Virus genome (UHGV): UHGV-0179801
Direction: 5' to 3' (one strand)
DNA: 43,982 bases
DNA from: a virus
Position 1 is the stretch's first letter; every line of letters starts with the position of its first letter. Under the pieces are notes generated by a model, which was not told where the DNA came from, ran no database searches, and saw only the letters and a list, made by a program, of their open reading frames with translations. Shown here piece by piece: positions 2,101 through 40,473 of this stretch. The translations under genes were made by a program, and so were the position numbers.

Positions 2101-2125
2101 ATGAAAAGAGGGACCGAAGTCCCTC
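2101..2125 (-). terminator. intrinsic terminator after major capsid gene
   Basis: Minus strand GAGGGAC-TTCG-GTCCCTC followed by TTTTCATTT, 18 nt after capsid stop. Confidence 0.55.
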
Positions 2126-2142
2126 TCGATTATAGCTTAACC

Positions 2143-3192
2143 TTAAGACCCGACACCAGTTACCAGGAAGGCAATCGGTACATGCTTACGTTCAACAACA
2201 CGGTTCCAGTTAGAGGCGTTCGCCAGGTCCTGCCAGGAAGCGGAGCGCGGGGTAGTCTCGGTGCCGTTGCCAGTGATTACTGCGCTGGTGAAGCTGTAGC
2301 CAAACGGATGCAGCAACCAGGTCTTACGGGTCCACAGGGTTTCAACGCCGCCGCCATTGCCGCGGGACTCTTCACGCTCATAGGCCAGCGGATTGGTTGG
2401 GTTGCCTTCACCATAACCGATAGCGCCGTTGCCGAAGATGATGGAGATGAACTTACGGCTAGGGCCAGTACCGACTACGGTCATGCTGTCGTCAACAATC
2501 ACGCGGTAGCCCTGGTAGGTGGCGAACAGGGTGTCGTTGTCAGCGTTTTTGATGAAGTCGATAAGCTGCTGCTTACGGGCCTGCGCGTATACGAAGCTGT
2601 GCATAGCGATAGTGCCCAGCACTTCACCACCGTTGCCCATCAGCGCGTCACCCATAGTCTGGGTAGCGTCGATGAACGCGCCTGCGTCGAAGCCCAGAGT
2701 AGAGGACACGTCGATTACCATGTCGTTCTGCTCGTGATATGCGTCGGTGGCGGCTACGTTGTCATTGTACAGACCGAGCGCGGTGGCGATCAGACGGCGT
2801 TGTGCCTGGCGCTGCCAGAAGTTATCCAGGCGGGATGCTACGGATTGCAGCGGGTTCTGGCTGGTCAGTTCTACCGTCAAATCCGCCTGACCAAAGCCTT
2901 CGTTCAGGTACGCAACGCGGGCCATCATCTCACCGGTCTGCACATTACGCGGGGTAGCGATGTCCTGGTATACGTCGTTCGAGTAGTTCGGCTCGATAGA
3001 GGTATCAATCGCTTTCCAGAAAGGAATATTAGCGATGTTGGACGGGCCGCGGGCAATCTCGGCAGCGTACGGAGTCGGAGTCAGAATACCGGACTGGAAG
3101 AACGCGGTTTTTTCTACCGGGTCCTCGGTCATATAAGATGCCAGGACCGGGATGTTGCCAGTTACGATATCGCCGATAGTGGTAATTGCCAT
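2143..3192 (-). CDS. major capsid protein
   Basis: 349 aa, follows scaffold gene with 2-nt gap, strong codon regularity (long in-phase antisense ORF), typical size/position for HK97-fold capsid protein. Confidence 0.8.
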   Translation of the reverse strand: MAITTIGDIVTGNIPVLASYMTEDPVEKTAFFQSGILTPTPYAAEIARGPSNIANIPFWKAIDTSIEPNYSNDVYQDIATPRNVQTGEMMARVAYLNEGFGQADLTVELTSQNPLQSVASRLDNFWQRQAQRRLIATALGLYNDNVAATDAYHEQNDMVIDVSSTLGFDAGAFIDATQTMGDALMGNGGEVLGTIAMHSFVYAQARKQQLIDFIKNADNDTLFATYQGYRVIVDDSMTVVGTGPSRKFISIIFGNGAIGYGEGNPTNPLAYEREESRGNGGGVETLWTRKTWLLHPFGYSFTSAVITGNGTETTPRSASWQDLANASNWNRVVERKHVPIAFLVTGVGS

Positions 3193-3194
3193 TA

Positions 3195-3896
3195 TTATTT
3201 CCTCAGGGCTTTAAGTTGCCGTTCAAATTCGGCAGGGTTCGATTTATACAGAGCTAAACGCTCCGCTTCACTCATGTCTTTAAACGCTGGTGCGGCCCCG
3301 CCGCCTTTGCTACCGGAAGCCCCGCCGCCGGAAGCTGCATTTGCTTTAATCAAATGCGAAAACGCTTTGTGTTCACGCAGATATTTGCGGAACTGTTCCG
3401 GGTCAGTCGTGATTACGTTACCGTCTGCGCTGACAAACTTAGTAACCACATCATCGCCTTCGAACTCAGTCTTAACGAACGGTGCAAGGATGTCCACTGC
3501 TTCCGGGGTGATAAAGTCACCTGCGAAAGAGCCTAACACCGCTTTACGTTCGCTACCGAGAATGCGCTCTGCCATTCTGGAGATGCGGCCATCTTTCTCG
3601 GCTAACACCGGGTCATACTGGCTACGAATCGTCTTTTCGAACTCGTCCATCTTACCAGCGGCTTTTAACGCCTCCTGGTGGGCACGCTGCCGTTCTTCTT
3701 CGGCCTCTTTTGCTTTACGAGCGGCTTCTTTCTTCTCCGCAAGTAATGCTTCCTGATTAGCCTTAAGCCCGGCAACTTCTTTCTCAATCAGCGCCTGAAC
3801 TTCTTCAGCGGTGAACATTTTCGGTGCGTCACCGCCGCCAGATTTATCTTCTGCTCCAGCTTCTTCCTGGAACGGATAACGTAAAAAACGATTCAT
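3195..3896 (-). CDS. scaffolding protein
   Basis: ORF 3195..3950 trimmed to ATG 3896; 233 aa, Ala/Glu/Lys-rich coiled coil (EALLAEKKEAARKAKEAEEERQRAHQEALKAAGK); immediately upstream of capsid gene. Confidence 0.7.
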   Translation of the reverse strand: MNRFLRYPFQEEAGAEDKSGGGDAPKMFTAEEVQALIEKEVAGLKANQEALLAEKKEAARKAKEAEEERQRAHQEALKAAGKMDEFEKTIRSQYDPVLAEKDGRISRMAERILGSERKAVLGSFAGDFITPEAVDILAPFVKTEFEGDDVVTKFVSADGNVITTDPEQFRKYLREHKAFSHLIKANAASGGGASGSKGGGAAPAFKDMSEAERLALYKSNPAEFERQLKALRK

Positions 3897-3978
3897 AGTC
3901 AGTATGTCCCCTGGACGTTGGAATCCGGGCCACCCGGATTTACATGTCAAGAATAAATTATTCCAACATGCAAGGCAA

Positions 3979-4698: not shown

Positions 4699-4727
4699 AG
4701 CTTAGCACATTTTTAGTGAAAAGTCAA
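4699..4727 (-). promoter_or_regulatory. candidate leftward promoter TTGACT-N17-TAAGCT
   Basis: -35 at 4727..4722, -10 at 4704..4699 (minus strand); abuts 16-bp palindrome; about 175-195 nt upstream of hairpin 4499..4518. Confidence 0.3.
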
Positions 4728-4741
4728 CTATTCGAATAGTT
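4726..4741. repeat. perfect 16-bp palindrome AACTATTCGAATAGTT
   Basis: Read directly; half-sites CTATT/AATAG are those of the promoter dyad but in swapped order; centre about -41.5 relative to the TSS predicted from 4699..4727. Confidence 0.8.
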
Positions 4742-4793: not shown

Positions 4794-4822
4794 TTGCACA
4801 CACCAATATAATAGGGTACTAT
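4794..4822 (+). promoter_or_regulatory. type-A promoter/operator cassette (TTGCAC-N17-TACTAT)
   Basis: TTGCACACACCAATATAATAGGGTACTAT; near-identical copies at 6601, 40223 and 18086(-); contains dyad AATAG-N4-CTATT. Confidence 0.6.
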
Positions 4823-4850
4823 TCATTACATCGAAACGAGGAGATGAAAA

Positions 4851-5024
4851 ATGTTCAAAGAAAAAGACATAATGCACGAAAACGGCAAATACTGGGTTCT
4901 AAATGATAAAGGAGTGTACTGCGTAATGATTTCCGGGTTTACCCACGCTAAAGCTGATAGTGCATACGCTAGTTTAGATTTAGCGATAGCCCGCTGTGAT
5001 TATCTGGCGAGTAGAGACGCATAA
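4851..5024 (+). CDS. small protein (57 aa), rightward island 1
   Basis: Hand-found ORF: AGGAGA SD, ATG 4851, MFKEKDIMHENGKYWVLNDKGVYCVMISGFTHAKADSAYASLDLAIARCDYLASRDA, TAA 5024; own promoter and terminator; AT-rich. Confidence 0.55.
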   Translation: MFKEKDIMHENGKYWVLNDKGVYCVMISGFTHAKADSAYASLDLAIARCDYLASRDA

Positions 5025-6600: not shown

Positions 6601-6629
6601 TTGCAGACACCAATATAATAGGGTACTAT
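6601..6629 (+). promoter_or_regulatory. type-A promoter/operator cassette (TTGCAG-N17-TACTAT)
   Basis: TTGCAGACACCAATATAATAGGGTACTAT followed by the same leader ...CGAAACGAGGAGATGA.AAATG as copy 4794. Confidence 0.6.
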
Positions 6630-6656
6630 TCAGTTATCGAAACGAGGAGATGAGAA

Positions 6657-7178
6657 ATGGTTACTACAGTAATTACTTTCCCTGCGTATGTAGGGGCGAA
6701 AATCTGCAGGGCGAAAAATGATGTGCGCTATTATTTGAACGCTTTTTACATAGACCCTGAAGGATTGATAGTTTCTACGGATGGTCACAGATTGTTCTGC
6801 GACAACGTGAAGACAAACGTCGAAACTGGAGTTCTAATAGACATCAAAGGGAGGGAGCCTTCTAAATTTAACTACGCGGAGGTAGACCACGACAACGGTA
6901 GTGTTTCTTTCTATGACGATAGTAGTGCGCTTGTATGTACACTTCCTATTGAAGTTGTAGACGGGAGATTTCCTTACTGGAGACGTGTGGCCGGCATTAC
7001 GCCGGGTTCAGTCGATAGCATAGGGTTCTCTCTGCGCTATTTGGCGGACGCGTACAAGATTTCTAAGGCATACAAAAATGAAATTGCCCGTTTCGATTTC
7101 CAGGACCAAACAAACGGATGCAAAATATCATTTTCAAACACTGCATTTATGGTGCTAATGCCAGCGCGATTTAAATAA
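6657..7178 (+). CDS. truncated DnaN (beta sliding clamp)-like protein, rightward island 2
   Basis: 173 aa; blocks DVRYYLN, TDGHRL, VDGRFPYWRRV, IGFSLRY, LMPARF match E. coli DnaN domain II and C-terminal half of domain III (from memory of DnaN). Confidence 0.8.
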   Translation: MVTTVITFPAYVGAKICRAKNDVRYYLNAFYIDPEGLIVSTDGHRLFCDNVKTNVETGVLIDIKGREPSKFNYAEVDHDNGSVSFYDDSSALVCTLPIEVVDGRFPYWRRVAGITPGSVDSIGFSLRYLADAYKISKAYKNEIARFDFQDQTNGCKISFSNTAFMVLMPARFK

Positions 7179-7182
7179 AACT

Positions 7183-7206
7183 AAGGCCCCGAAAGGGGCC
7201 TTTTCT
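7183..7206. terminator. bidirectional GC-hairpin terminator
   Basis: AAGGCCCC-GAAA-GGGGCCTT + TTTC; between 6657..7178(+) and portal stop 7207(-). Confidence 0.7.
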
Positions 7207-11045: not shown

Positions 11046-11074
11046 ACTATACTAGCAGGCTATTCACGCGTCAA
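11046..11074 (-). promoter_or_regulatory. type-B promoter/operator (TTGACG-N17-TATAGT)
   Basis: Minus strand TTGACGCGTGAATAGCCTGCTAGTATAGT. Confidence 0.55.
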
Positions 11075-11191: not shown

Positions 11192-11367
11192 TTCAAGAAT
11201 CTCAACAGGGCATCGGCAATACCTGATGTTACCAGTCCGAAAAACATAGGCCACCAGATATATCCGGGCAGATTGGTAAATGTTTCTGGCTTAGTACAGA
11301 AAGCCAGTAAAAACGCGAACCAAAACACTATATAACTAATGCTGCTGAGTAATTCTAAAATGCTCAT
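11188..11367 (-). CDS. small membrane protein (59 aa)
   Basis: Hand-found, ATGA-coupled to 11364..11600; MSILELLSSISYIVFWFAFLLAFC...FFGLVTSGIADALLRFLK (2 TM). Confidence 0.5.
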   Translation of the reverse strand: MSILELLSSISYIVFWFAFLLAFCTKPETFTNLPGYIWWPMFFGLVTSGIADALLRFLK

Positions 11368-11600
11368 TCCCCACCCTCCCCTTTAGCAATACGTTGCTCT
11401 GTTTTAGTGATACCGCGGCGCGTGAATAACACCGGGCTTGTCTTAACGTGCGTCATCAGACGGTTGTTATAAATTACGTGGCGCTCGCAATCAACGTCTT
11501 TGCTGTACTTTGCAATCGTCATTTCGTTGATGCCGGTTTGTCGACATGTCTCCGCCATTGTGCCGAATTCTTTGATCAGGTTCGGAATGCTGGTAATCAA
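11364..11600 (-). CDS. HTH DNA-binding protein (78 aa)
   Basis: TTG 11600 with AAGGAGAG SD, TTGA coupling; HTH-like GTMAETCRQTGINEMTIAKY. Confidence 0.55.
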   Translation of the reverse strand: MITSIPNLIKEFGTMAETCRQTGINEMTIAKYSKDVDCERHVIYNNRLMTHVKTSPVLFTRRGITKTEQRIAKGEGGE

Positions 11601-13471: not shown

Positions 13472-13500
13472 AATATAGTAGGGTCGAGGATAATAGTCAA
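13472..13500 (-). promoter_or_regulatory. promoter TTGACT-N17-TATATT
   Basis: Minus strand TTGACTATTATCCTCGACCCTACTATATT, just after the endolysin terminator; leader contains CAACGAGAACGGAG. Confidence 0.5.
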
Positions 13501-13521
13501 CTAGTCATTACAGAAAATAGA

Positions 13522-13554: not shown

Positions 13555-13618
13555 AAAACCGGAGAGCAGAGGAATGGAACAGGAGGTGATTTAAGTATCG
13601 TCGGATTAGTCTCAGGTG

Positions 13619-14125
13619 TCAACCTTTCACCGCGCGCCCAATAGCCTCAGCCTCTTGCCACGATTTACCGTCGAACAGCGCCAGACGTCCGGCAACACGT
13701 CGGCGTAGGCCAAGCACAGGCTCAAGTTTACCGGTTTTCGGGTTACGCTGGTTGATGAACTGACTCATCTTGTGCCGTAAGGTAGGGATGTCTCCCTGCC
13801 GTAGTGCCTTACCGGTACCGGTCGTCGCCGCGATAACACCAGTTCCGGCGTTAAACACCAGGTCGACAACGGCATCAAACTGAGCCTGGGTCAGTGAGGG
13901 ATGTGCGACTTCATCAACTGCTTTCACCGCCCACTGCATATCGCGGTTCAGTAACAGCAGCCCCTGGCCCTCGGTAATCTTCTGCCCTTCATACACATCC
14001 GGCCCGGTATGACCCCAGCCTATAGTCCAGTATTTCTCGTTCTTTGTGGCTTTGTATGCAGTTCCGCGAAACTTCTCCCACGCTTTCTTGAACTGCAACC
14101 CATTATCTGAAATGTTTCGAGACAC
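13619..14125 (-). CDS. endolysin, GH24 (T4/lambda-type lysozyme)
   Basis: ORF 13619..14176; likely GTG 14125 with GGAGGA SD 7 nt upstream; WEKFRGTAYKATKNEKYWTIGWGHTG matches E..x..TIGxGH lysozyme signature. Confidence 0.8.
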   Translation of the reverse strand: MSRNISDNGLQFKKAWEKFRGTAYKATKNEKYWTIGWGHTGPDVYEGQKITEGQGLLLLNRDMQWAVKAVDEVAHPSLTQAQFDAVVDLVFNAGTGVIAATTGTGKALRQGDIPTLRHKMSQFINQRNPKTGKLEPVLGLRRRVAGRLALFDGKSWQEAEAIGRAVKG

Positions 14126-14735: not shown

Positions 14736-15173
14736 TTATCCTAATAGTTGTTTGGTAATAATCTTGCCACCTGTGTTAGCGTCAAACTTCGATGCAACGG
14801 CTACACCGCCATGTGCTGAATACCCACATTCCATAGCCGCGAGTGCATAAGGAGAACCGGAACCAACGGCAGCAAAGCTATCAGCAATCGGAATAACCGA
14901 ACTAAGAGCACAATCCCATGATTTACAGAACTCCACCTTACACAACGTTTCGATGTCTCTAACCCACACCAAAGCAGAGAAATCAAAATCGTAGTGTTTA
15001 GGCACTAAAATACTATCGTCCTTCACTAAAAGGATACCAACTCCAGCGTCACCCGCTACACCGATAACAACAAACTCGTTCTCGTATATCTTAGTGTCAG
15101 TGTTGTATATATGACTTCCCGATACACGCGTGTCACACGCCATTGTCTTTCCGTCAAACGCGATAGTAGTCAT
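14736..15173 (-). CDS. HslV / proteasome beta-like Ntn hydrolase
   Basis: 145 aa; MTTIAFDGK... (Thr2 nucleophile position), VIGVAGDAG, AVGSGSPYALAA cf. HslV MTTIVSV / AGFAGGTAD / AIGSGGPYAQAAA; AT-rich. Confidence 0.65.
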   Translation of the reverse strand: MTTIAFDGKTMACDTRVSGSHIYNTDTKIYENEFVVIGVAGDAGVGILLVKDDSILVPKHYDFDFSALVWVRDIETLCKVEFCKSWDCALSSVIPIADSFAAVGSGSPYALAAMECGYSAHGGVAVASKFDANTGGKIITKQLLG

Positions 15174-16848: not shown

Positions 16849-16879
16849 CTTCTGTCTCTCCTCTCGTTTGTGCAAATGA

Positions 16880-16908
16880 ATAGTAACCTATTCTATCCCA
16901 GTGAGCAA
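16880..16908 (-). promoter_or_regulatory. type-A promoter variant (TTGCTC-N17-TACTAT)
   Basis: Minus strand TTGCTCACTGGGATAGAATAGGTTACTATTCA. Confidence 0.5.
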
Positions 16909-17271: not shown

Positions 17272-17306
17272 AAATGAGAAAAATGGTACGCTGCTGTGTA
17301 GCAGCG
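17272..17306 (-). terminator. possible terminator hairpin
   Basis: Minus strand CGCTGCT-ACAC-AGCAGCG then TACCATTTTTCTCATTTTT. Confidence 0.4.
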
Positions 17307-17330
17307 TAAGTCACAAAGCCAAATAGTAAC

Positions 17331-17492
17331 CTATTGACCTATTACACCACCTGTTACACCAGCGCGAAATTGCACACCAGCTTTCCACGCCCGCCACGCG
17401 AGACGCGTCTTAACGTTCAGGTACTCTTTCTTCGAACCTTTGTTAACCGGCAGACCCTCTACGACGGCCCACCGTTCAAATGCTTCTCTCAT
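17331..17492 (-). CDS. hypothetical protein (53 aa)
   Basis: Hand-found, ATGA-coupled at 17492; MREAFERWAVVEGLPVNKGSKKEYLNVKTRLAWRAWKAGVQFRAGVTGGVIGQ. Confidence 0.45.
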   Translation of the reverse strand: MREAFERWAVVEGLPVNKGSKKEYLNVKTRLAWRAWKAGVQFRAGVTGGVIGQ

Positions 17493-17804: not shown

Positions 17805-18023
17805 TTATTTAAAGTAGATAGCGAATTTCTTGTAACCCGCAGGCTCGTTACGAAGCCCTTTACCATTAGCGAAACGTTGTACGTTGTTAAAATCATTTTC
17901 ATCCATTCCGTCGGTGTCGAACGTAAAGAAGTTGCGTTTGTTCCTGATAATTACGCGCTCTGAAATATCGATACCGTAAACTTCTTTGATTGCTGAAACT
18001 ACGCTTGCAGTCGCTTTGTTCAT
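17805..18023 (-). CDS. first leftward early gene, hypothetical (72 aa)
   Basis: ORF track; AAGGA SD; 35 nt downstream of type-A promoter 18058..18086. Confidence 0.65.
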   Translation of the reverse strand: MNKATASVVSAIKEVYGIDISERVIIRNKRNFFTFDTDGMDENDFNNVQRFANGKGLRNEPAGYKKFAIYFK

Positions 18024-18057
18024 CTTTAAATTCCTTATGTCTCGTTGCTATAAGTGA

Positions 18058-18086
18058 ATAGTATCCTATTATATTGGTGTGTGCAA
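18058..18086 (-). promoter_or_regulatory. type-A promoter/operator cassette, leftward early
   Basis: Minus strand TTGCACACACCAATATAATAGGATACTAT; plus strand also reads TTGCTA-N16-TATTAT (18045..18072). Confidence 0.6.
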
Positions 18087-18456: not shown

Positions 18457-18485
18457 TTGATTTCCCATTATTCGCAATGTATACT
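18457..18485 (+). promoter_or_regulatory. rightward early promoter TTGATT-N17-TATACT
   Basis: Good sigma70 match about 30 nt upstream of the first rightward gene. Confidence 0.55.
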
Positions 18486-21244: not shown

Positions 21245-21555
21245 ATATTTACGATTTTATAGATAATCCGTTTAGAGCAGTGAAGGCAGGATACCGCCCA
21301 TCGTACCTGACTTGTGTTTCTTGTGTAGCTCACCAATGGGGTGCTGTTTGCAAGCTGGCGCTAGAGGAAGTTACAGAATTGCGTCATGTTATGGATATGA
21401 CGTTAAAGGAAATTGTAGCGTGTACCGTCCACATTGTTTTCAGAACTGCAGCTGTGGTTAGTTTTCCGTTAAGCGTATGGCTTTTTGCGTGGATTCAGTA
21501 CCTGAACGTGCAACACACGATTAAGAATATGGAAGAGCTCGATAAGTTGCTATAA
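21241..21555 (+). CDS. membrane-associated hypothetical protein (104 aa)
   Basis: ORF track, ATGA coupling; hydrophobic VHIVFRTAAVVSFPLSVWLFAWI. Confidence 0.55.
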   Translation: MNIYDFIDNPFRAVKAGYRPSYLTCVSCVAHQWGAVCKLALEEVTELRHVMDMTLKEIVACTVHIVFRTAAVVSFPLSVWLFAWIQYLNVQHTIKNMEELDKLL

Positions 21556-21584
21556 AAAAAAAATAAAGGGGCGTTAAGCCCCTT
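21553..21584 (-). terminator. intrinsic terminator of the Cro-like gene
   Basis: Minus strand AAGGGGC-TTAAC-GCCCCTT followed by TTTATTTTTTTTTT; 5' arm overlaps the last codons. Confidence 0.75.
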
Positions 21585-21789
21585 CACCAAACGCCAGCCA
21601 CTTTGCGTCTACTTGCAGCACTTCCGCCAGCTTGAACAGCGTCGCTGGACGTACGTCCTGAGTTACCCCAAGTGCCAGCTGGTTAATCGCGCCCTGGGAA
21701 ACACCGGCCAGGACAGCCAGACGGCGCTGGGAGATGCCGAGTTCTTTGCGGCGTTGTTCTACACGGATGCCTAGTTCAGATGGTTGCAT
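21574..21789 (-). CDS. XRE/Cro-CI-type HTH transcriptional regulator (71 aa)
   Basis: RRKELGISQRRLAVLAGVSQGAINQLALG is a classic HTH_3 pattern; only minus-strand gene within the rightward arm. Confidence 0.8.
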   Translation of the reverse strand: MQPSELGIRVEQRRKELGISQRRLAVLAGVSQGAINQLALGVTQDVRPATLFKLAEVLQVDAKWLAFGEGA

Positions 21790-21820
21790 GTCAATTACTC
21801 CTTAGTTAGTTGATATGTGA

Positions 21821-21849
21821 ATAGTACCATATTAATTATTTTAGAAAAG
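21821..21849 (-). promoter_or_regulatory. degenerate type-A promoter of the Cro-like gene
   Basis: -10 TACTAT with ...AATATGGTACTATTCAC; -35 poor (TTTTCT/CTTTTC); half-degenerate dyad AATAGtaccATATT 21820..21833. Confidence 0.35.
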
Positions 21850-21853
21850 CCCA

Positions 21854-21883
21854 TTGACATCATGAATAGTTCGCTATTATAGT
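21854..21883 (+). promoter_or_regulatory. type-B promoter/operator (TTGACA-N18-TATAGT)
   Basis: TTGACATCATGAATAGTTCGCTATTATAGT; dyad AATAG-N4-CTATT at 21865..21878. Confidence 0.6.
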
Positions 21884-21913
21884 TAGCCCATACCAAACGA
21901 GAGGAGAGACAAA

Positions 21914-22063
21914 ATGATTAACAACCGCAAAGCAAAGATTCTGTTAGGCCTTGATATTGCATTTGGGGCTAAAGAAACCGCACGCTATCGCGTAAGCAAC
22001 AATCGTGTGGGCTTCTTCGACAAAGCAACAGGCCAGTTAGTTAAAACCGTTAAGTATAAATAA
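21914..22063 (+). CDS. hypothetical protein (49 aa)
   Basis: Hand-found: GAGAGGAGAG SD, ATG 21914, MINNRKAKILLGLDIAFGAKETARYRVSNNRVGFFDKATGQLVKTVKYK. Confidence 0.5.
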   Translation: MINNRKAKILLGLDIAFGAKETARYRVSNNRVGFFDKATGQLVKTVKYK

Positions 22064-22078
22064 ACAGGAGAGAAACAA

Positions 22079-22531
22079 ATGTTAGAACAATTTCTTAAAT
22101 TACTGGAACGTTTCGTAGTTGCACATGAACTGATTGCCGCGAACAGTGTGAAACAAGTTGTCGTTGCTGAAACTGCAACAATCGCGCCTACTGTTGCAAC
22201 AAAAGAAATCCCGGTCGAAGGTGAAGACGTAGTTGACACTAAACCGGCAGAAGAAGAGAAGCCGAAACGCAAGCCGCGTAAAGCTAAAGTAGAGGAACCT
22301 ACGCCAGAGCCAGAAGAAGAAGTCGACTACCAGTCTCTGCGCGACCAGATTCAGGCTATCGATGATGCCATTAACGAAGGTCCGAGCGATGCCGCGTGCG
22401 ACGATTCTGATGAACTGCTGGAAGAGTTCACGGGTAAGAAGATGAAGATTGCTGCGATTAAAGACGAAGACCTGGCCGAGTACCTGGAGCGCCTGACGGC
22501 AATCAAGAACAAGTATTTCGAAGAAGAATAA
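22079..22531 (+). CDS. strongly acidic protein (150 aa)
   Basis: ORF track; AGGAGA SD; Glu/Asp-rich, ends KYFEEE. Confidence 0.65.
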   Translation: MLEQFLKLLERFVVAHELIAANSVKQVVVAETATIAPTVATKEIPVEGEDVVDTKPAEEEKPKRKPRKAKVEEPTPEPEEEVDYQSLRDQIQAIDDAINEGPSDAACDDSDELLEEFTGKKMKIAAIKDEDLAEYLERLTAIKNKYFEEE

Positions 22532-22535
22532 CTAT

Positions 22536-22557
22536 CCCGCGGCCTTCGGGCCGCTTT
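22536..22557 (+). terminator. hairpin terminator
   Basis: GCGGCC-TTCG-GGCCGC then TTTAAA. Confidence 0.45.
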
Positions 22558-22574
22558 AAATGAGGGTCGGAATT

Positions 22575-22910
22575 ATGAACTACGAAAATTTAACAGACAT
22601 AGAAATTAATGCACGCGTCAGCCGCGAGCTATACGGCAATGTTTCGCGAGGGCATCAGATGGAATTAGCTTCTGGTGATGTTGATTATTGCAACCGCGTT
22701 GAAGACGCATGGCCTGTTATCACCGGTAACAACATCTCGATTGTAGCTACCGATTCAGAATGGATTGCTTTACCGGATAATGCGGTTATTGACGGTATTA
22801 CCGGAGACGCCACCAGTATGATTTACGTTGGTGACGAATGCGTTATCGGCGAAAACCCTCTACGCGCCGCCATGATTGTATTTCTGAAAATGCGGGAGAA
22901 GGCGCAATGA
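22575..22910 (+). CDS. DUF2591 / NinX-like protein (111 aa)
   Basis: ORF 22560..22910 trimmed to ATG 22575; N-terminus MNYENLTDIEINARVSRELYG resembles NinX-family starts (memory). Confidence 0.5.
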   Translation: MNYENLTDIEINARVSRELYGNVSRGHQMELASGDVDYCNRVEDAWPVITGNNISIVATDSEWIALPDNAVIDGITGDATSMIYVGDECVIGENPLRAAMIVFLKMREKAQ

Positions 22911-23179
22911 TTTACCAACTCTACCGCGCCGTAGACAGGCGGGATAACACAGAGGCGCTATGGCTGTTACGTGCGCCGTCAGGGGCGCACCTGATGGAAG
23001 AGATGGCGTACTTAGGCAAAGTACCTCGGCCTAAAGATATAGGCCGTCACGTGTCGCAGATTAAGCGCACGACTTTCGCAAAACCTGACTTCTATGTCTT
23101 CGAGTCGATGTACAGCTGGGCCTTGCATTGCGACCATAAGACACAGCATTTAATCGACCAGTGGGAGAACAGGGTATGA
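22907..23179 (+). CDS. hypothetical protein (90 aa)
   Basis: ORF 22838..23179 trimmed to ATG 22907 (ATGA coupling). Confidence 0.55.
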   Translation: MIYQLYRAVDRRDNTEALWLLRAPSGAHLMEEMAYLGKVPRPKDIGRHVSQIKRTTFAKPDFYVFESMYSWALHCDHKTQHLIDQWENRV

Positions 23180-24417
23180 TTCTAAAAGAACGCGGCGGCA
23201 ATAACGATGTGCACGCCTTATTGTCACCATCAGGCGCTAAAAAGTGGTTAAGTTGCGCCGCATCACTGGCCTGTGAAAAAGATATTCCTAACACGTCCGG
23301 TAAAGCAGCCGTTACAGGAACCGCGTGTCACACTATAGCTGAGGTCCATCTAAACCAGTACATCAAAGGCACTGCGCTGCCGTTAGAGCGTGAAGTCGGT
23401 GCCTACGTGCTGGATGAGGGTAAAGGCCAGATTAAGGCGCTAATCAGCCCGATGAAAGGCGCTGTACTGATTACGGCGGACATGATTGAGCAAGTGCGCA
23501 AGTACACCGACTACTGCAAACCGATTATTGACGTCGCGACTTATGCCAAGCTGGAAATGCGCGTCAATCTTACTGAGGTATTGCATCCTGGTTATGAAGA
23601 CGTCGAGACGTTCGGGACAGCCGACCTTGTTGCCGTTCAGGAGCTGGCTAACTCCGACGAGCACATGCTTATCGTCGGCGACCTTAAAACCGGACGGCAT
23701 CGTGTCGAAGCGAAAGAAAACAAACAGCTTATGCTATACGCTCTCGGTGTTTATCGCCGACTCAAGAGACGTTATAACATCACCGTGGTTCGTCTGGTCA
23801 TCTTCCAGCCCTACGCTGGTGGTGCGTCGGAGTGGGACATCTCGGTTGAAGGCCTTGAACTGTTCGCTAAGTTTGCGCAGAAACGCGCACTGTTAGCTCT
23901 TGATGCGTATTTCCGTGGTAAGAAGAACCTGAAAGCATCGGATTTCAAGCCGTCTGTCGATGGTTGTCAGTGGTGTCGGTTCTCTGAACAATGCGCCGCG
24001 CGTACAAAGACGGTTAATTCTGTACTGGCAGAAGAACTGGAAGACGACTTTGCGCTGGAACTTACACCAGAGCAACTCGTAGCTGAGTATGAGAAGTTGC
24101 CGTTGTTGCGCCAGCACATCGACAAGGTTGAGAAAGCTATGGCCGCCGCGTTGCATTCCGGTAAGAAAGTGCCAGGGTACAAGCTGGTTGAAGGTAAGAT
24201 GGGCAACCGTGCGTGGAAAGACGCGGAGAAAGTGGCAGAACTGTACGGCGACAAGCTGACTAAAGAAGTGCTCATGACACCGACCGAAGCGGTTAAAGTA
24301 ATACCGGAAGAAGAACTGAAAGACTTCATTACCCGTAAGCCTGGCGCGCCATGCGTCGCAACGGCAGACGACAAACGGCCTGAATGGAATCAGGTTAGTG
24401 AAGAAGATTTGGAATAA
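23176..24417 (+). CDS. DUF2800 PD-(D/E)XK, Cas4-like nuclease
   Basis: ATG 23176 (ATGA coupling); LSPSGAKKWLSCAASL N-terminus, DLKTGRH..EAKENKQL core, CQWCRFSEQC Cys cluster; ends SEEDLE. Confidence 0.75.
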   Translation: MILKERGGNNDVHALLSPSGAKKWLSCAASLACEKDIPNTSGKAAVTGTACHTIAEVHLNQYIKGTALPLEREVGAYVLDEGKGQIKALISPMKGAVLITADMIEQVRKYTDYCKPIIDVATYAKLEMRVNLTEVLHPGYEDVETFGTADLVAVQELANSDEHMLIVGDLKTGRHRVEAKENKQLMLYALGVYRRLKRRYNITVVRLVIFQPYAGGASEWDISVEGLELFAKFAQKRALLALDAYFRGKKNLKASDFKPSVDGCQWCRFSEQCAARTKTVNSVLAEELEDDFALELTPEQLVAEYEKLPLLRQHIDKVEKAMAAALHSGKKVPGYKLVEGKMGNRAWKDAEKVAELYGDKLTKEVLMTPTEAVKVIPEEELKDFITRKPGAPCVATADDKRPEWNQVSEEDLE

Positions 24418-24421
24418 AGTG

Positions 24422-24450
24422 TTGACACCTGAATAGTTAGCTATTATATT
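24422..24450 (+). promoter_or_regulatory. type-B promoter/operator (TTGACA-N17-TATATT)
   Basis: TTGACACCTGAATAGTTAGCTATTATATT. Confidence 0.6.
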
Positions 24451-27559: not shown

Positions 27560-27680
27560 ACTGATTATCGCGATACTGGCGGGATTCGCCGCTGGTGTCT
27601 ACTGTCACGAGGGTCAATACGGCATGATTGTCGCCGTGTTAGGTATGTTCATCGCAATTTATCTGTGGGTGCTGGAATGA
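27549..27680 (+). CDS. small membrane protein (43 aa)
   Basis: Hand-found: MLSKLIIAILAGFAAGVYCHEGQYGMIVAVLGMFIAIYLWVLE; overlaps polymerase stop. Confidence 0.4.
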   Translation: MLSKLIIAILAGFAAGVYCHEGQYGMIVAVLGMFIAIYLWVLE

Positions 27681-27775
27681 AAATTTACTTGTTCTACGAA
27701 GAAGACTGCCGAATCTGTCCGCGCTGCGGGATTGAACATACAAAACGGGAGGGGTGCGTAGATGAGCACGCCTGA
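27677..27775 (+). CDS. possible 32-aa zinc-ribbon peptide
   Basis: ATGA-coupled; MKIYLFYEEDCRICPRCGIEHTKREGCVDEHA. Confidence 0.35.
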   Translation: MKIYLFYEEDCRICPRCGIEHTKREGCVDEHA

Positions 27776-28067
27776 GGGCCGCGTACAGAAATACGCAAAG
27801 GAGCGATTCGAGGCCATTGGTGGCCTCGTTAGAAAGCTGTCTTATGAGGGTAGAAACGGAGCGCCTGACCTGCTGGTAGTCCTTCCGGGAGGGGTGATAT
27901 GGTTCGTCGAGGTGAAGAAAGACGAAAACACGGAACCGGAGGCCCATCAGTTGCGGGAACACAAACGGCTTCGTAAACGTGACGCAAATGTTTTTGTAGT
28001 AGGAACAAAAGAAGAGGTTGACACCCTAATAGCGAACTATTATAGTAGCCATACACCAACAATATAA
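27762..28067 (+). CDS. VRR-NUC domain nuclease
   Basis: 101 aa; GAPDLLVVLPGGVIWFVEVKKDE...QLREHKRL = PD..(D/E)xK VRR-NUC pattern. Confidence 0.8.
   Translation: MSTPEGRVQKYAKERFEAIGGLVRKLSYEGRNGAPDLLVVLPGGVIWFVEVKKDENTEPEAHQLREHKRLRKRDANVFVVGTKEEVDTLIANYYSSHTPTI
28018..28046 (+). promoter_or_regulatory. type-B promoter/operator (TTGACA-N17-TATAGT) inside 3' end of VRR-NUC gene
   Basis: TTGACACCCTAATAGCGAACTATTATAGT; leader ACACCAACAAT shared with copy 40223. Confidence 0.55.
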
Positions 28068-28270: not shown

Positions 28271-29211
28271 ACTATTACAATGAATGGGATAAAGGCGCTG
28301 CCGCGTGGCTGCGTGAATTAATAAAACAGGGGCACATACCTTTTGGAGTTGTAGATGAAAGAAGTATTACCGAAGTTAAGCCAGAAGACCTCGACGGATT
28401 CACCCAGTGTCATTTTTTCGCTGGTATCGGCGGCTGGCCTCTCGCGCTCAGACTTGCGGGAGTTCCGGAAGATGCGCCTCTCTGGACGGGAAGCCCGCCT
28501 TGCCAACCGTTTAGCGCGGCGGGAAAGCAACTTGGACAGTTCGACCCGAGACACCTCGCGCCAGTCTTCCTCGACCTCATCAGCGAGTGCCGCCCTCCAG
28601 TCCTCTTTGGGGAACAGGTTGCGCCAGCAATTGCAAAATCGTGGATGTGCGATTTACAAACTCATCTGGAAGGAGAAGACTACGCCGTCGGGTTTGCTGT
28701 ACTCCCAGCTTGTAGCGTCGGCGCACCGCACAAAAGAGAACGACTCTTCTTTGGTGCGCACGAATTGGCCTACACCGACAGCGAACGACTACAAGGGGAG
28801 TGGAGAGACAGTGATTCGCAAGGACGGGAAGGACAGAACATTCGACAGGCTGGACTACTCAACGGAGCAGGGGCTGAAACTGACGAGTTGGCCTACTCCT
28901 CGCAGTGCGGACGGAGAAAAGAACGTGAGAACATTAGAGGGGTCGCTATCAGAGATTCGGAGGAAGGGTGGGCCTCAGGACGTAGCGCAAGCTGCTGCAA
29001 TAACACAGCCAATCCGCATCACGGCTTCTGGTCAGACGCTGACTGGCTTGGATGCAGGGACGGAAAGTTCAGGCCAGTTGAATCCGGCACATTCCCGCTG
29101 GCTAATGGGATACCCGCCAGAGTGGGACGATTGCGCGGTTACGGCAATGCCATCGTCCCGCAAGTAGCCGCTGAATTTATAAAGGCGTTCATGGGGGCTG
29201 TAAATGAGTAA
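28267..29211 (+). CDS. DNA (cytosine-5) methyltransferase, frame A
   Basis: 314 aa; motifs I FAGIGG (28417), IV SPPCQPFS (28492), VI FGEQV (28606), VIII GAPHKRERLFF (28720), X GYGNAIVPQ (29137). Confidence 0.85.
   Translation: MNYYNEWDKGAAAWLRELIKQGHIPFGVVDERSITEVKPEDLDGFTQCHFFAGIGGWPLALRLAGVPEDAPLWTGSPPCQPFSAAGKQLGQFDPRHLAPVFLDLISECRPPVLFGEQVAPAIAKSWMCDLQTHLEGEDYAVGFAVLPACSVGAPHKRERLFFGAHELAYTDSERLQGEWRDSDSQGREGQNIRQAGLLNGAGAETDELAYSSQCGRRKERENIRGVAIRDSEEGWASGRSASCCNNTANPHHGFWSDADWLGCRDGKFRPVESGTFPLANGIPARVGRLRGYGNAIVPQVAAEFIKAFMGAVNE
28355..29167 (+). CDS. overlapping +1-frame ORF with MTase TRD/C-terminal-type motifs (frame B)
   Basis: 270 aa, ATG 28355 with GGAG 6 nt upstream; YKLIWKEKTTPSG, NWPTPTANDYKG, SWPTPRSADGEKN, QLNPAHSRWLMGYPPEWDDC; expression unproven. 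Confidence 0.45.
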   Translation: MKEVLPKLSQKTSTDSPSVIFSLVSAAGLSRSDLREFRKMRLSGREARLANRLARRESNLDSSTRDTSRQSSSTSSASAALQSSLGNRLRQQLQNRGCAIYKLIWKEKTTPSGLLYSQLVASAHRTKENDSSLVRTNWPTPTANDYKGSGETVIRKDGKDRTFDRLDYSTEQGLKLTSWPTPRSADGEKNVRTLEGSLSEIRRKGGPQDVAQAAAITQPIRITASGQTLTGLDAGTESSGQLNPAHSRWLMGYPPEWDDCAVTAMPSSRK

Positions 29212-30628
29212 GTTTCAAAGGCGCGAGTACCAAAAGCTCATGACCTCGTTCATGTTGCGGCATCATCGATGCAACATATGGGCAAGCATGGGCGCCGGGA
29301 AGACTGGCAGCGTACTGTGGGCTTTAAACCGACTGTTCCGCAACGGCCAACTTAATGACGACGACCGCGTGTTAATCCTTGCCCCGCTGCGCGTTGCATC
29401 AGGTACATGGCCGGCAGAACAAGAGAAATGGCAATTCCCATGTCTGAGCGTCGTAGATGCGACAGGTTCAGAGAAGCGCCGCATCGCGGCGCTGGAGTCT
29501 GACGCTAACGTGGTATGCACGAACCACGAAGTTATCGAGTGGCTGATTGACTACTACGGCAAGGATGACTGGCCCTTCACGGTTATCGTCGCAGACGAGA
29601 GCACGAAGCTGAAATCATTTCGTAGCCGTTCGGGTGGCAGCAAGCGGGCGAAAGCGCTCAGCAAAGTGGCGTTCGGAAAGGTTAAGCGCTTCATCAACCT
29701 GACTGGTACACCGTCGCCGAACGGCCTCAAAGATTTGTGGGGCCAAAACTGGTTTATAGACGCGGGCGAGCGTCTTGGTTCTTCATACACGGCATTCACC
29801 GACCGATGGTTTAACTCGGTACAGAAAGGTAAGTCAGCGATGGACCGTGAGTATCACGCACGCCCAGGCGCAGATAACGAGATTCATCAGAAGATGAAGG
29901 ACATTAGTCTCACGATTGACGCTGCCGAGTGGTTCGGTTGCGAAGCGCCGATTATTGTACCGGTTGAAATCGACCTGCCGAAGAAAGCGCGCCAGGCGTA
30001 CGTCGATATGGAGGAGAAGTTATTTGCGGAACTCGAGAGCGGAGAAGTTGAAGCCGCTAATGCGGCAGCGAAGACATCGAAGTGTCTCCAGATTGCATCA
30101 GGTGCCGTGTATGTATCAGGGCCCGACGGTGAAGCAACGAAAGACTGGGAGAAAGTGCACGACACGAAACTGGATGCGCTGGAGTCCATTGTCGAGGAGT
30201 TGCAGGGTGCGCCGTTGCTGGTGGCCTATCAGTTTAAGCACGAACTGGAGCGTATCCTTAAGCGATTCCCGCAGGCGCAGGCGTTTGCAAAAGGCGCTAA
30301 GGGTAATAAGCAGATGGAAGCGTGGAACCGCGGGGAAATCGAAATCTTATGCGTACACCCTGCGTCAGCCGGGCACGGCCTCAATTTACAGGACGGTGGG
30401 CACCACCTGGCGTTCATATCGCAAGGCTGGAACCTTGAGCACTATTTGCAGGTTGTTGAGCGCATAGGCCCGGTACGCCAGAAACAGGCAGGCCACGAGC
30501 GCCCGGTGTTCCTGTATCACATCGTCGCTAAAGATACGCTGGACGAGGTTGTTGCTGCGCGTACGGACGAGAAGAAATCGGTACAGGAAGAGTTGCTTAA
30601 TTACATGAAGAGACGAGGTAAGAAATGA
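29204..30628 (+). CDS. SNF2-family helicase
   Basis: 474 aa; Walker A GAGKTGS, DESTKLK (DExx), HPASAGHGLNLQ motif VI-like. Confidence 0.85.
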   Translation: MSKFQRREYQKLMTSFMLRHHRCNIWASMGAGKTGSVLWALNRLFRNGQLNDDDRVLILAPLRVASGTWPAEQEKWQFPCLSVVDATGSEKRRIAALESDANVVCTNHEVIEWLIDYYGKDDWPFTVIVADESTKLKSFRSRSGGSKRAKALSKVAFGKVKRFINLTGTPSPNGLKDLWGQNWFIDAGERLGSSYTAFTDRWFNSVQKGKSAMDREYHARPGADNEIHQKMKDISLTIDAAEWFGCEAPIIVPVEIDLPKKARQAYVDMEEKLFAELESGEVEAANAAAKTSKCLQIASGAVYVSGPDGEATKDWEKVHDTKLDALESIVEELQGAPLLVAYQFKHELERILKRFPQAQAFAKGAKGNKQMEAWNRGEIEILCVHPASAGHGLNLQDGGHHLAFISQGWNLEHYLQVVERIGPVRQKQAGHERPVFLYHIVAKDTLDEVVAARTDEKKSVQEELLNYMKRRGKK

Positions 30629-40222: not shown

Positions 40223-40251
40223 TTGCACACCCCAATATAATAGGGTACTAT
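40223..40251 (+). promoter_or_regulatory. type-A promoter/operator cassette (TTGCAC-N17-TACTAT)
   Basis: TTGCACACCCCAATATAATAGGGTACTAT; opposite strand offers TTGGTG-N16-TATTAT towards chaperone gene. Confidence 0.6.
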
Positions 40252-40281
40252 TCACTTACACCAACAATGGAGGAGTTTAAA

Positions 40282-40473
40282 ATGTCAAGTTTACCAGTTT
40301 CCTTAATTCTGTTTGCACTACTCGCTTATTTTGCGCCTTTCCTGGTTGCATATTTCCGCAACCATAAAGCGAAGTTAGCGATATTCATGGCTAACCTGTT
40401 TCTTGGCTGGATTCTGCTGCCGTGGGTATTTATTTTAATCTGGGCTTGCAACTCGAATGTCAAAGAGAAGTGA
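40282..40473 (+). CDS. superinfection-immunity-like membrane protein (Imm_superinfect type)
   Basis: ORF 40267 trimmed to ATG 40282 (GGAGG SD); 2 TM; YFAPFLVAYFRNHKAKLAIFMANLFLGWILLPW resembles the Imm family motif (memory). Confidence 0.6.
   Translation: MSSLPVSLILFALLAYFAPFLVAYFRNHKAKLAIFMANLFLGWILLPWVFILIWACNSNVKEK

Follow-up and report, generated by a model that had tools for sequence, protein, structure and literature searches.

UHGV virus genome UHGV-0179801 (43,982 nucleotides, the whole of which we call the window) carries, inside its rightward replication arm, a minus-strand gene for a 71-amino-acid (71-aa) helix-turn-helix (HTH) protein of the HTH_3 family. We propose, with moderate confidence, that this gene belongs to a self-contained Cro-type cassette whose product represses most of the phage's promoters by occlusion, i.e., that it serves as a genome-wide brake and not as a local immunity switch or a leftover of lysogeny. 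About a dozen promoters of this strictly lytic phage contain the candidate operator, a 14-bp dyad, AATAG-N4-CTATT, and the regulator itself is transcribed from a weakened copy of one promoter class, converted to a TG form. Neither finding, nor any function of the regulator, is described in the searchable literature.

A search with 2.4 kb around the regulator locus matched 444 phage records at 80-95% identity, nearly all from two genera of the subfamily Guernseyvirinae, Kagunavirus (E. coli) and Jerseyvirus (Salmonella). The window is a Kagunavirus genome, and it is as large as a whole genome of the Guernseyvirinae group (~44 kb). Its lysis and structural arm runs leftward (~0-18 kb) and its replication arm rightward (18.3-30.8 kb), followed by leftward tail genes (30.8-40.1 kb), a short rightward unit (40.3-42.0 kb) and then leftward tail genes again.

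The regulator cassette

With Pfam HTH_3 the 71-aa protein scores 48.1 bits (E 1.2e-12), above the curated cut-off of 23, and the closest solved structure by sequence is 434 Cro (E 4.9e-7), which has the same length. Its AlphaFold2 model (predicted local distance difference test score, pLDDT, 79) has five helices (residues 5-17, 21-28, 32-39, 48-57 and 62-66) in a globular HTH fold, with helices 2 and 3 as the HTH. The best fold match in the PDB is again 434 Cro (2cro; template-modelling score, TM, 0.73/0.79; ~40% identity). The top entries are 2cro, 1pra and 3cro; after 434 Cro come the 434 repressor domain, HipB, SinR, C-proteins and P22 c2. The HTH domain spans all 71 residues, with no C-terminal S24 peptidase or oligomerisation domain, as in Cro and not as in CI. 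Judged by its sequence and predicted fold, the gene is thus of the Cro type, 434 Cro subtype. Residues 31-38 (SQGAINQL) are the predicted recognition helix, and the GVSQGAINQLALGVTQDV segment is unchanged among Kagunavirus-type variants whose overall identity is only 77-86%.

The gene itself is not new: it is a conserved member of a very well-known family and is already known at the level of annotation. GenBank relatives label it "Cro" or "transcriptional repressor", an orthologue is found in 568 phage records, and the record of phage Shashou names its orthologue, gp50, "transcriptional regulator cro" by similarity to 434 Cro. As an independent test of the link between protein and site, we searched 5.8 billion proteins for homologues with the same recognition helix outside the family. 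None came back: the hits were close relatives of the Kagunavirus type, with a full-length identity of at least 77%, and four truncated fragments. The samples that hold the protein are mostly sewage metagenomes, which give no information on carriage.

The gene ends in an intrinsic terminator with an 11-bp stem and a 5-nt loop (-19.6 kcal/mol, z = -2.95). On the minus strand the stem is followed by UUUAUUUUUUUUUU, whereas the plus-strand sequence after the hairpin is CACCAAACG, with no U-tract, so the terminator is unidirectional. The hairpin therefore ends the regulator transcript but probably not the rightward transcripts from the helicase-primase operon. These probably pass it, so that the regulator gene is transcribed head-on against that operon. 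An equivalent terminator is annotated in the SETP3 and Shashou records. In Cornellvirus vB_CECAV_044 (L003, 10587..13631) the orthologous HTH gene lies upstream of the helicase-primase gene and on the same strand, with a terminator-like hairpin of its own after the gene. The promoter-gene-terminator cassette is thus kept in Cornellvirus, with its orientation relative to the replication genes inverted.

The regulator promoter (21820, minus strand) is a class A promoter core, as defined below, that has lost its TTGCAC -35: the sequence at that position (21844..21849) is CTTTTC, which matches the consensus at one of six bases. The SETP3 counterpart has a complete TTGCAC-17-TACTAT. In the window the promoter has an extended -10, and the T of its TG is the same base as the single mismatch in the overlapping dyad, which we call O_H. 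Across relatives the TG is kept while the base after it varies (G, A or C). The O_H half-sites are identical in all 36 distinct Kagunavirus upstream sequences of our alignment, with changes in the central bases only (a 37th distinct sequence, L041, is an unrelated outgroup at 40% identity), and the weakened copy is conserved at the regulator promoter in both Kagunavirus and Jerseyvirus. A related phage, MB78, reportedly has a strong promoter without a -35 that interacts with a phage-specific factor, according to work from the 1990s.

A second, exact dyad, O_B, starts 45 bp from O_H in the spacer of the divergent rightward promoter. Its half-sites are invariant among relatives, and the central 4 bp read CGAA, CTAA, TGAA, CAAA, CGAG or CTAG in the intergenic alignment. 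Some relatives have a 1-bp indel between the -35 and the dyad of the divergent promoter, from which the alignment implies a spacing of 44 or 45 bp.

A preliminary description of this locus had reported the 71-aa minus-strand gene, its own strong terminator of hairpin and T-run, a regulator promoter with a good -10 and a poor -35, one imperfect and one full dyad, and a divergent "type-B" promoter containing the latter. All of these are present, and the graded pair of operators it placed between the divergent promoters stands as one strong and one weakened site. Three of its wordings need narrowing. The gene was called the only minus-strand gene of the rightward arm, which is probably right: other minus-strand open reading frames (ORFs) there lie inside a 474-aa plus-strand ORF (29204..30628) or, in the case of 27639..27962, score poorly for a ribosome-binding site and otherwise lack support. 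It was called a lone gene, which is true of HTH_3 genes but overlooks an HTH_17 gene and a weak NinH-like match, discussed below. Finally, O_H was called half-degenerate. It has a single mismatch, explained largely by promoter mechanics, i.e., the intact half is the -10 and the mismatch creates the TG of the extended -10.

Dyads at promoters across the genome

The window contains nine exact copies of AATAG-N4-CTATT against 0.03 expected, and no shuffle out of 100 gave more than one. There are also at least four copies with one mismatch (21820, 11051, 13492 and 4719). Twelve of these 13 copies overlap the core of a sigma-70-like promoter, the exception being 17322, beside a terminator (Table 1). 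The copies span 4.7 kb to 40.2 kb, so the arrangement is one of dispersed operators: many copies of one site genome-wide, at or near promoters. This overturns the earlier reading of O_H and O_B as a miniature immunity region of two operators, since the same dyad stands in about a dozen promoters and the local pair is simply the regulator's home copy.

Table 1. Regulator locus, dyad copies and associated promoters in the window
Feature	Coordinates	Strand	Remarks
Regulator gene, 71-aa 434-Cro-like HTH_3 protein	21574..21789	-	ORF, Pfam HTH_3 and 434 Cro match
Intrinsic terminator of regulator gene	21545..21588	- only	Stem-loop 21562..21588 overlaps stop codon; U-run 21545..21561; from folding and sequence
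Regulator gene promoter	21821..21849	-	Extended -10 TGgTACTAT: TG 21829..21828, hexamer TACTAT 21826..21821
O_H, weak candidate operator, AATAGTACCATATT (AATAGtaccATATT)	21820..21833	.	One mismatch; over -10 of regulator promoter, centre ~-12.5
O_B, strong candidate operator, AATAGTTCGCTATT (AATAGttcgCTATT)	21865..21878	.	Exact; in spacer of rightward promoter, touching -10, centre ~-18.5
Divergent class B promoter, TTGACA-18-TATAGT	21854..21883	+	11/12 sigma-70 consensus match
Unit of the divergent class B promoter	21914..24417	+	49-aa protein, 150-aa protein, NinX, 90-aa protein, DUF2800 exonuclease
Class A, TTGCACacaccaatatAATAGggTACTATTca	4810+, 6617+, 40239+, 18057-, 16879-		Right half of dyad is the -10
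Class B, TTGACA-N4/5-AATAGnnnnCTATTATAGT	21865+, 24432+, 28028+, 11051-		Dyad fills spacer and abuts -10
Leftward late promoters	13492, 4719		Dyad contains TTGACT and covers -35
Exact operator candidate, class B promoter 24422..24450	24432..24445	.	Drives single-stranded-DNA-binding protein and DNA polymerase
Exact operator candidate, class B promoter 28018..28046	28028..28041	.	Drives 63-aa protein, C5 methylase, helicase-like gene
Exact operator candidate over -10, leftward class A promoter TTGCAC-17-TACTAT	18057..18070	.	Drives 18023..17805
Exact operator candidate over -10, leftward class-A-like promoter TTGCTC-17-TACTAT	16879..16892	.	Leftward block into holin and endolysin genes (Shashou synteny)
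Exact dyad, no convincing promoter	17322..17335	.	Adjoins terminator 17287..17308; present in some relatives, absent or replaced in others
Exact operator candidate, class A promoter	4810..4823	.	Drives lone plus-strand gene 4851..5024 (57-aa protein), set against late leftward operon
Exact operator candidate, class A promoter	6617..6630	.	Drives RusA-like gene 6657..7178 (+)
Exact operator candidate, class A promoter	40239..40252	.	Drives superinfection-immunity gene 40282..40473 and downstream genes
One-mismatch operator candidate, AATAGCCTGCTAGT on minus strand	11051..11064	.	Class B promoter TTGACG-17-TATAGT heading terminase and structural operon
One-mismatch operator candidate over -35 (TTGACT) of leftward promoter 13500..13472	13492..13505	.	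Mismatch conserved
One-mismatch operator candidate over TTGACT -35 of putative leftward late promoter	4719..4732	.	Conserved in CP088689.1
Early rightward promoter TTGATT-17-TATACT, no dyad	18457..18485	+	Drives HTH_17, 77-aa protein, helicase-primase
HTH_17 gene, excisionase/MerR-like, 56 aa	18518..18688	+	Opens early rightward operon; rival candidate binder

The dyad occurs in three registers relative to the -10 and -35, which define class A, class B and the leftward late promoters. In addition, classes A and B carry the common core TGAATAGnnnnCTATTATA in opposite orientations relative to the gene. The dyad is therefore not a recognition element of RNA polymerase, and a protein bound at any of the three registers would block the polymerase. 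Three promoters share the top sigma-70 score in the genome (11/12); they are the three class B promoters on the plus strand, and all bear the dyad. The early promoter at 18457..18485, which is conserved with a variable spacer, is the only clear dyad-free promoter of the replication arm. There is a second dyad-free candidate elsewhere, a leftward TTGACA-17-GATACT at 13622..13594 (10/12).

Activation from these positions was considered and rejected. MerR-type activation from a dyad in the spacer is ruled out because the spacers are already at the optimal 17-18 bp, and class I or class II activation because the sites are centred at ~-12.5 and ~-18.5. The short plus-strand units of the class A promoters (4851..5024, 6657..7178 and 40282..40473) lie against or beside leftward late operons, and they may cause convergent-transcription interference with the late genes.

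Relatives carry exact dyads as well: the 38 Kagunavirus loci have 171 and the 13 Jerseyvirus loci 42, with none in Cornellvirus or the outgroups. Across seven sets of orthologous promoters, variation is seen in six of 70 half-site columns, in 16 of 28 columns at the centre and in 52 of 140 in the flanks. Fixed outer half-sites around a drifting centre are the pattern expected, at the level of sequence, of a dimeric HTH protein that reads two half-sites. A second complete Kagunavirus genome, CP088689.1, has nine exact dyads, most of them at corresponding promoters, and it shares the one-mismatch sites at the regulator promoter and at the counterparts of 13492 and 4719.

Cornellvirus, which lacks HTH_17, retains an HTH_3 orthologue 39% identical to ours (51% in Jerseyvirus). 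There, related 14-bp elements of the form A[AT]TA[CG]-N4-[CG]TA[AT]T occupy the same promoter positions, with five copies against 0.52 expected, a combination that also disfavours HTH_17 as the reader of these sites.

Two broader searches added little. Genome-wide k-mer motif discovery did not isolate the motif, its output being dominated by repeats in coding sequence. A scan of viral contigs with TGAATAGNNNNCTATTATA was uninformative: many single matches fell on contigs with no other Kagunavirus evidence and were read as chance, the multi-copy matches that could be placed were all on known Kagunavirus contigs, and one more contig with two copies (9.8 kb) was left unplaced.

Candidate readers of the dyad and the proposed circuit

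Pfam scans, which covered the small proteins of the window, gave three DNA-binding candidates: the HTH_3 regulator, the HTH_17 protein and the NinH-like protein (11364..11600, below threshold). HTH_17 is a natural rival: the Kagunavirus and Jerseyvirus proteins are 87-91% identical and Cornellvirus has none, which is the distribution of the dyad itself. However, two Kagunavirus loci (L029 and L016) have had HTH_17 and its 77-aa neighbour replaced by an unrelated 47-aa CxxC...CxxC protein and a 149-aa protein. Both retain every dyad, which rules out HTH_17 as the binder and points to the Cro-like protein. Klebsiella phage klb_E (L002, 34077..34330) serves as a positive control: a regulator with the 434-like helix TKQQTIQQ has two ACAA-N6-TTGT operators directly upstream, a textbook 434-type module, and this phage has neither the dyads nor any match to the HTH_17 and NinH-like genes. 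On this comparative evidence we lean towards the regulator protein as the repressor that binds the dyad.

From the 14-bp geometry of the dyad and its conservation pattern we infer that the palindromic operator is bound by a dimer. The Cro-like protein would be made from its -35-independent extended -10 promoter, with its transcript ended by its own terminator, and the 71-aa product would probably bind AATAG-N4-CTATT as a dimer, like 434 Cro. Exact operators would be occupied first, i.e., those at promoters for replication, recombination and accessory genes, including the plus-strand genes that oppose the late leftward operons (4810 and 6617). At higher levels the one-mismatch operators would follow, those at the promoters of the structural operon, of two further leftward late units and of the regulator gene itself. 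Rising regulator would thus turn down early and middle units first and late units and itself last, giving weak negative autoregulation. The Cro-like shut-off with autoregulation that had been preferred over lysogeny from the local sequence fits this evidence, but at a genome-wide scale.

Several points weigh against this circuit. The main weakness is that the Jerseyvirus and Kagunavirus recognition helices differ at four of seven positions (SQSLITH and SQGAINQ) despite an identical dyad, which weakens a simple link from protein to site. Different helices can read one operator, as lambda cI and Cro do. O_H may be nothing beyond a -10 plus TG. An unrecognised DNA-binding protein among the window proteins outside the Pfam scans could be the binder, and the searchable literature on Guernseyvirinae, Jerseyvirus, Kagunavirus and phage MB78 holds no binding or expression experiment on the regulator protein. 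The operator at 16879 is exact though its unit seems to run into the holin and endolysin genes, a misfit with a clean early-to-late switch, and repressor sites over nearly all promoters, including the lysis unit, offer no obvious benefit to a lytic phage. Finally, in an RNA sequencing time course of a relative, the orthologue K1B4_004 (identified by size and position) is among the "middle" genes with no hint of shut-off, at time points too coarse to test for one, and the HTH_17 homologue K1B4_008 (identified by position) is among just four "early" genes (PMC12645636).

The helix difference is also a reason to ask whether the dyads are operators for a different factor, be it a host regulator, the NinH-like protein or a small phage protein that has escaped recognition, with the Cro-like protein acting elsewhere, e.g., on host genes or resident prophages. 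A NinH-like gene is present in all three genera, and many small ORFs are without annotation. With HTH_17 excluded by the natural gene replacements, the NinH-like protein is the remaining rival from the scans, but its divergence (69% identity between Kagunavirus and Cornellvirus, 59% between Kagunavirus and Jerseyvirus) runs opposite to that of the operator. The 5-N4-5 geometry is of the 434 type, and the regulator is the only 434-type protein in the genome. As for host regulators, the dyad matches, to our knowledge, none of the E. coli operator consensuses of FNR (TTGAT-N4-ATCAA), OxyR (ATAG-N7-CTAT), the ARG box or TrpR. We therefore consider a different factor unlikely.

The locus could also serve, or be left over from one that served, as a maintenance switch for dormancy without integration (carrier state or pseudolysogeny), acting by silencing nearly the whole genome. 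With operators over almost all promoters, full silencing is conceivable, and the complete 44,086-bp genome CP088689.1 (L182) entered the database as a circular "plasmid pC16EC0033-2" from an E. coli strain isolated from human blood. This single record is one anecdotal hint of a carrier state, and it could also come from contamination or from an ongoing lytic infection in the culture. Among the proteins scanned there is no second HTH_3 protein, S24-type or CI-sized repressor, integrase, ParA/B or other partition protein, or plasmid Rep, so the absences noted in the preliminary description held for all of them. The regulator is Cro-sized, and the early helicase-primase promoter lacks an operator. 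The group is reported as strictly lytic (PMC13216507; bioRxiv 10.1101/2024.09.12.612763), with clear plaques (PMC13216507), and the region has no match in 5,426 complete RefSeq E. coli genomes. Lysogeny is thus unlikely, as had been suspected, and a dormancy switch at this locus seems very improbable to us. We give little weight, too, to the speculation that a master Cro-type repressor lets a "lytic" siphophage silence nearly its whole genome, and so pass reversibly into dormancy or a carrier state with neither integrase nor partition genes, possibly with transcription-level cross-immunity to superinfecting relatives that share the operator (Kagunavirus and Jerseyvirus).

Lastly, the dyad could be a by-product of promoter symmetry (overlapping -10-like TATAAT and TACTAT) and no protein operator, with the HTH protein exerting local regulation or none; the half-site CTATT is indeed part of the -10 in class A promoters and the element is flanked by TATA-like sequence (TATAATAG...CTATTATA), but the class B dyad lies in a spacer that RNA polymerase does not read and yet has invariant half-sites around a drifting centre, the registers are three, and reverse-direction promoters would have no usable -35, so we find this explanation very improbable as well.

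Comparison with known phage systems, and other features

The proposed genome-wide brake has its closest molecular parallel in 434 Cro, which shares the regulator's length, is its best match in both sequence and fold, and is likewise encoded at a divergent promoter region. 434 Cro binds 14-bp operators (ACAA-N6-TTGT) as a dimer that contacts the outer bases and leaves the centre uncontacted; the window dyad is also 14 bp long, with two outer half-sites and a centre that is not conserved. The differences are as instructive. The half-site is AATAG instead of ACAA and the helix SQGAINQ instead of KQQSIQL, the gene has a dedicated terminator and is read in the direction opposite to the replication operon rather than leading it, and the operators are spread over about a dozen promoters genome-wide. 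Nor is the locus a CI-Cro switch: no partner CI-type repressor gene adjoins it, the divergent unit beginning with a 49-aa protein and running into replication genes, and there are two sites, one per promoter, instead of a tandem OR1-OR2-OR3 triplet. Integrase, ParA/B and plasmid Rep (Pfam scans) and prophage copies (5,426 E. coli genomes) are lacking, as described above.

In its dispersed layout the system resembles P1 C1, the stoperators of mycobacteriophage L5 gp71 and the phiC31 c repressor, where one small regulator serves many copies of one short site across the genome, many at promoters. Those phages are temperate, their repressors maintain prophages, and the P1 and L5 sites are asymmetric; in contrast, the window belongs to a strictly lytic group, its site is a symmetric 14-mer and its protein is Cro-sized. 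The Guernseyvirinae homologues (Shashou gp50 and SETP3 gp43) are orthologous genes at the same position beside the helicase-primase gene with the same terminator, but the annotation in their records stops at the gene.

Kagunavirus and Jerseyvirus phages are widely isolated, are used in phage-therapy and biocontrol cocktails and have been proposed as small engineering chassis. They are routinely declared safe for lack of lysogeny genes, though many records label this gene "repressor". If our proposal is true, it accounts for a "repressor" gene in a strictly lytic phage and offers a simple model of temporal control for phages whose transcription programme has scarcely been studied. For synthetic biology it would also supply a compact repressor with matching operators and promoters that are graded in strength, and it would raise the question, for therapy, of transient silencing or cross-immunity between related phages in one cocktail.

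Three further observations concern other parts of the window. A 551-aa plus-strand open frame (2101..3756) runs antisense to the minus-strand genes for the major capsid and scaffold proteins (2143..3192 and 3195..3950). It has no Pfam match, and we regard it as almost certainly spurious. Four near-identical hairpins, AAGGCCC-N6-GGGCCTT, stand at 7183, 25166, 30767 and 42010, each directly 3' of the final gene in a plus-strand transcription unit; from their sequence and placement, one terminator cassette seems to have been reused. A 145-aa protein (14736..15173, minus strand) encoded upstream of the holins in the leftward block has a weak proteasome/HslV-like match, and phage Shashou carries the annotation "ATP-dependent protease" for it.

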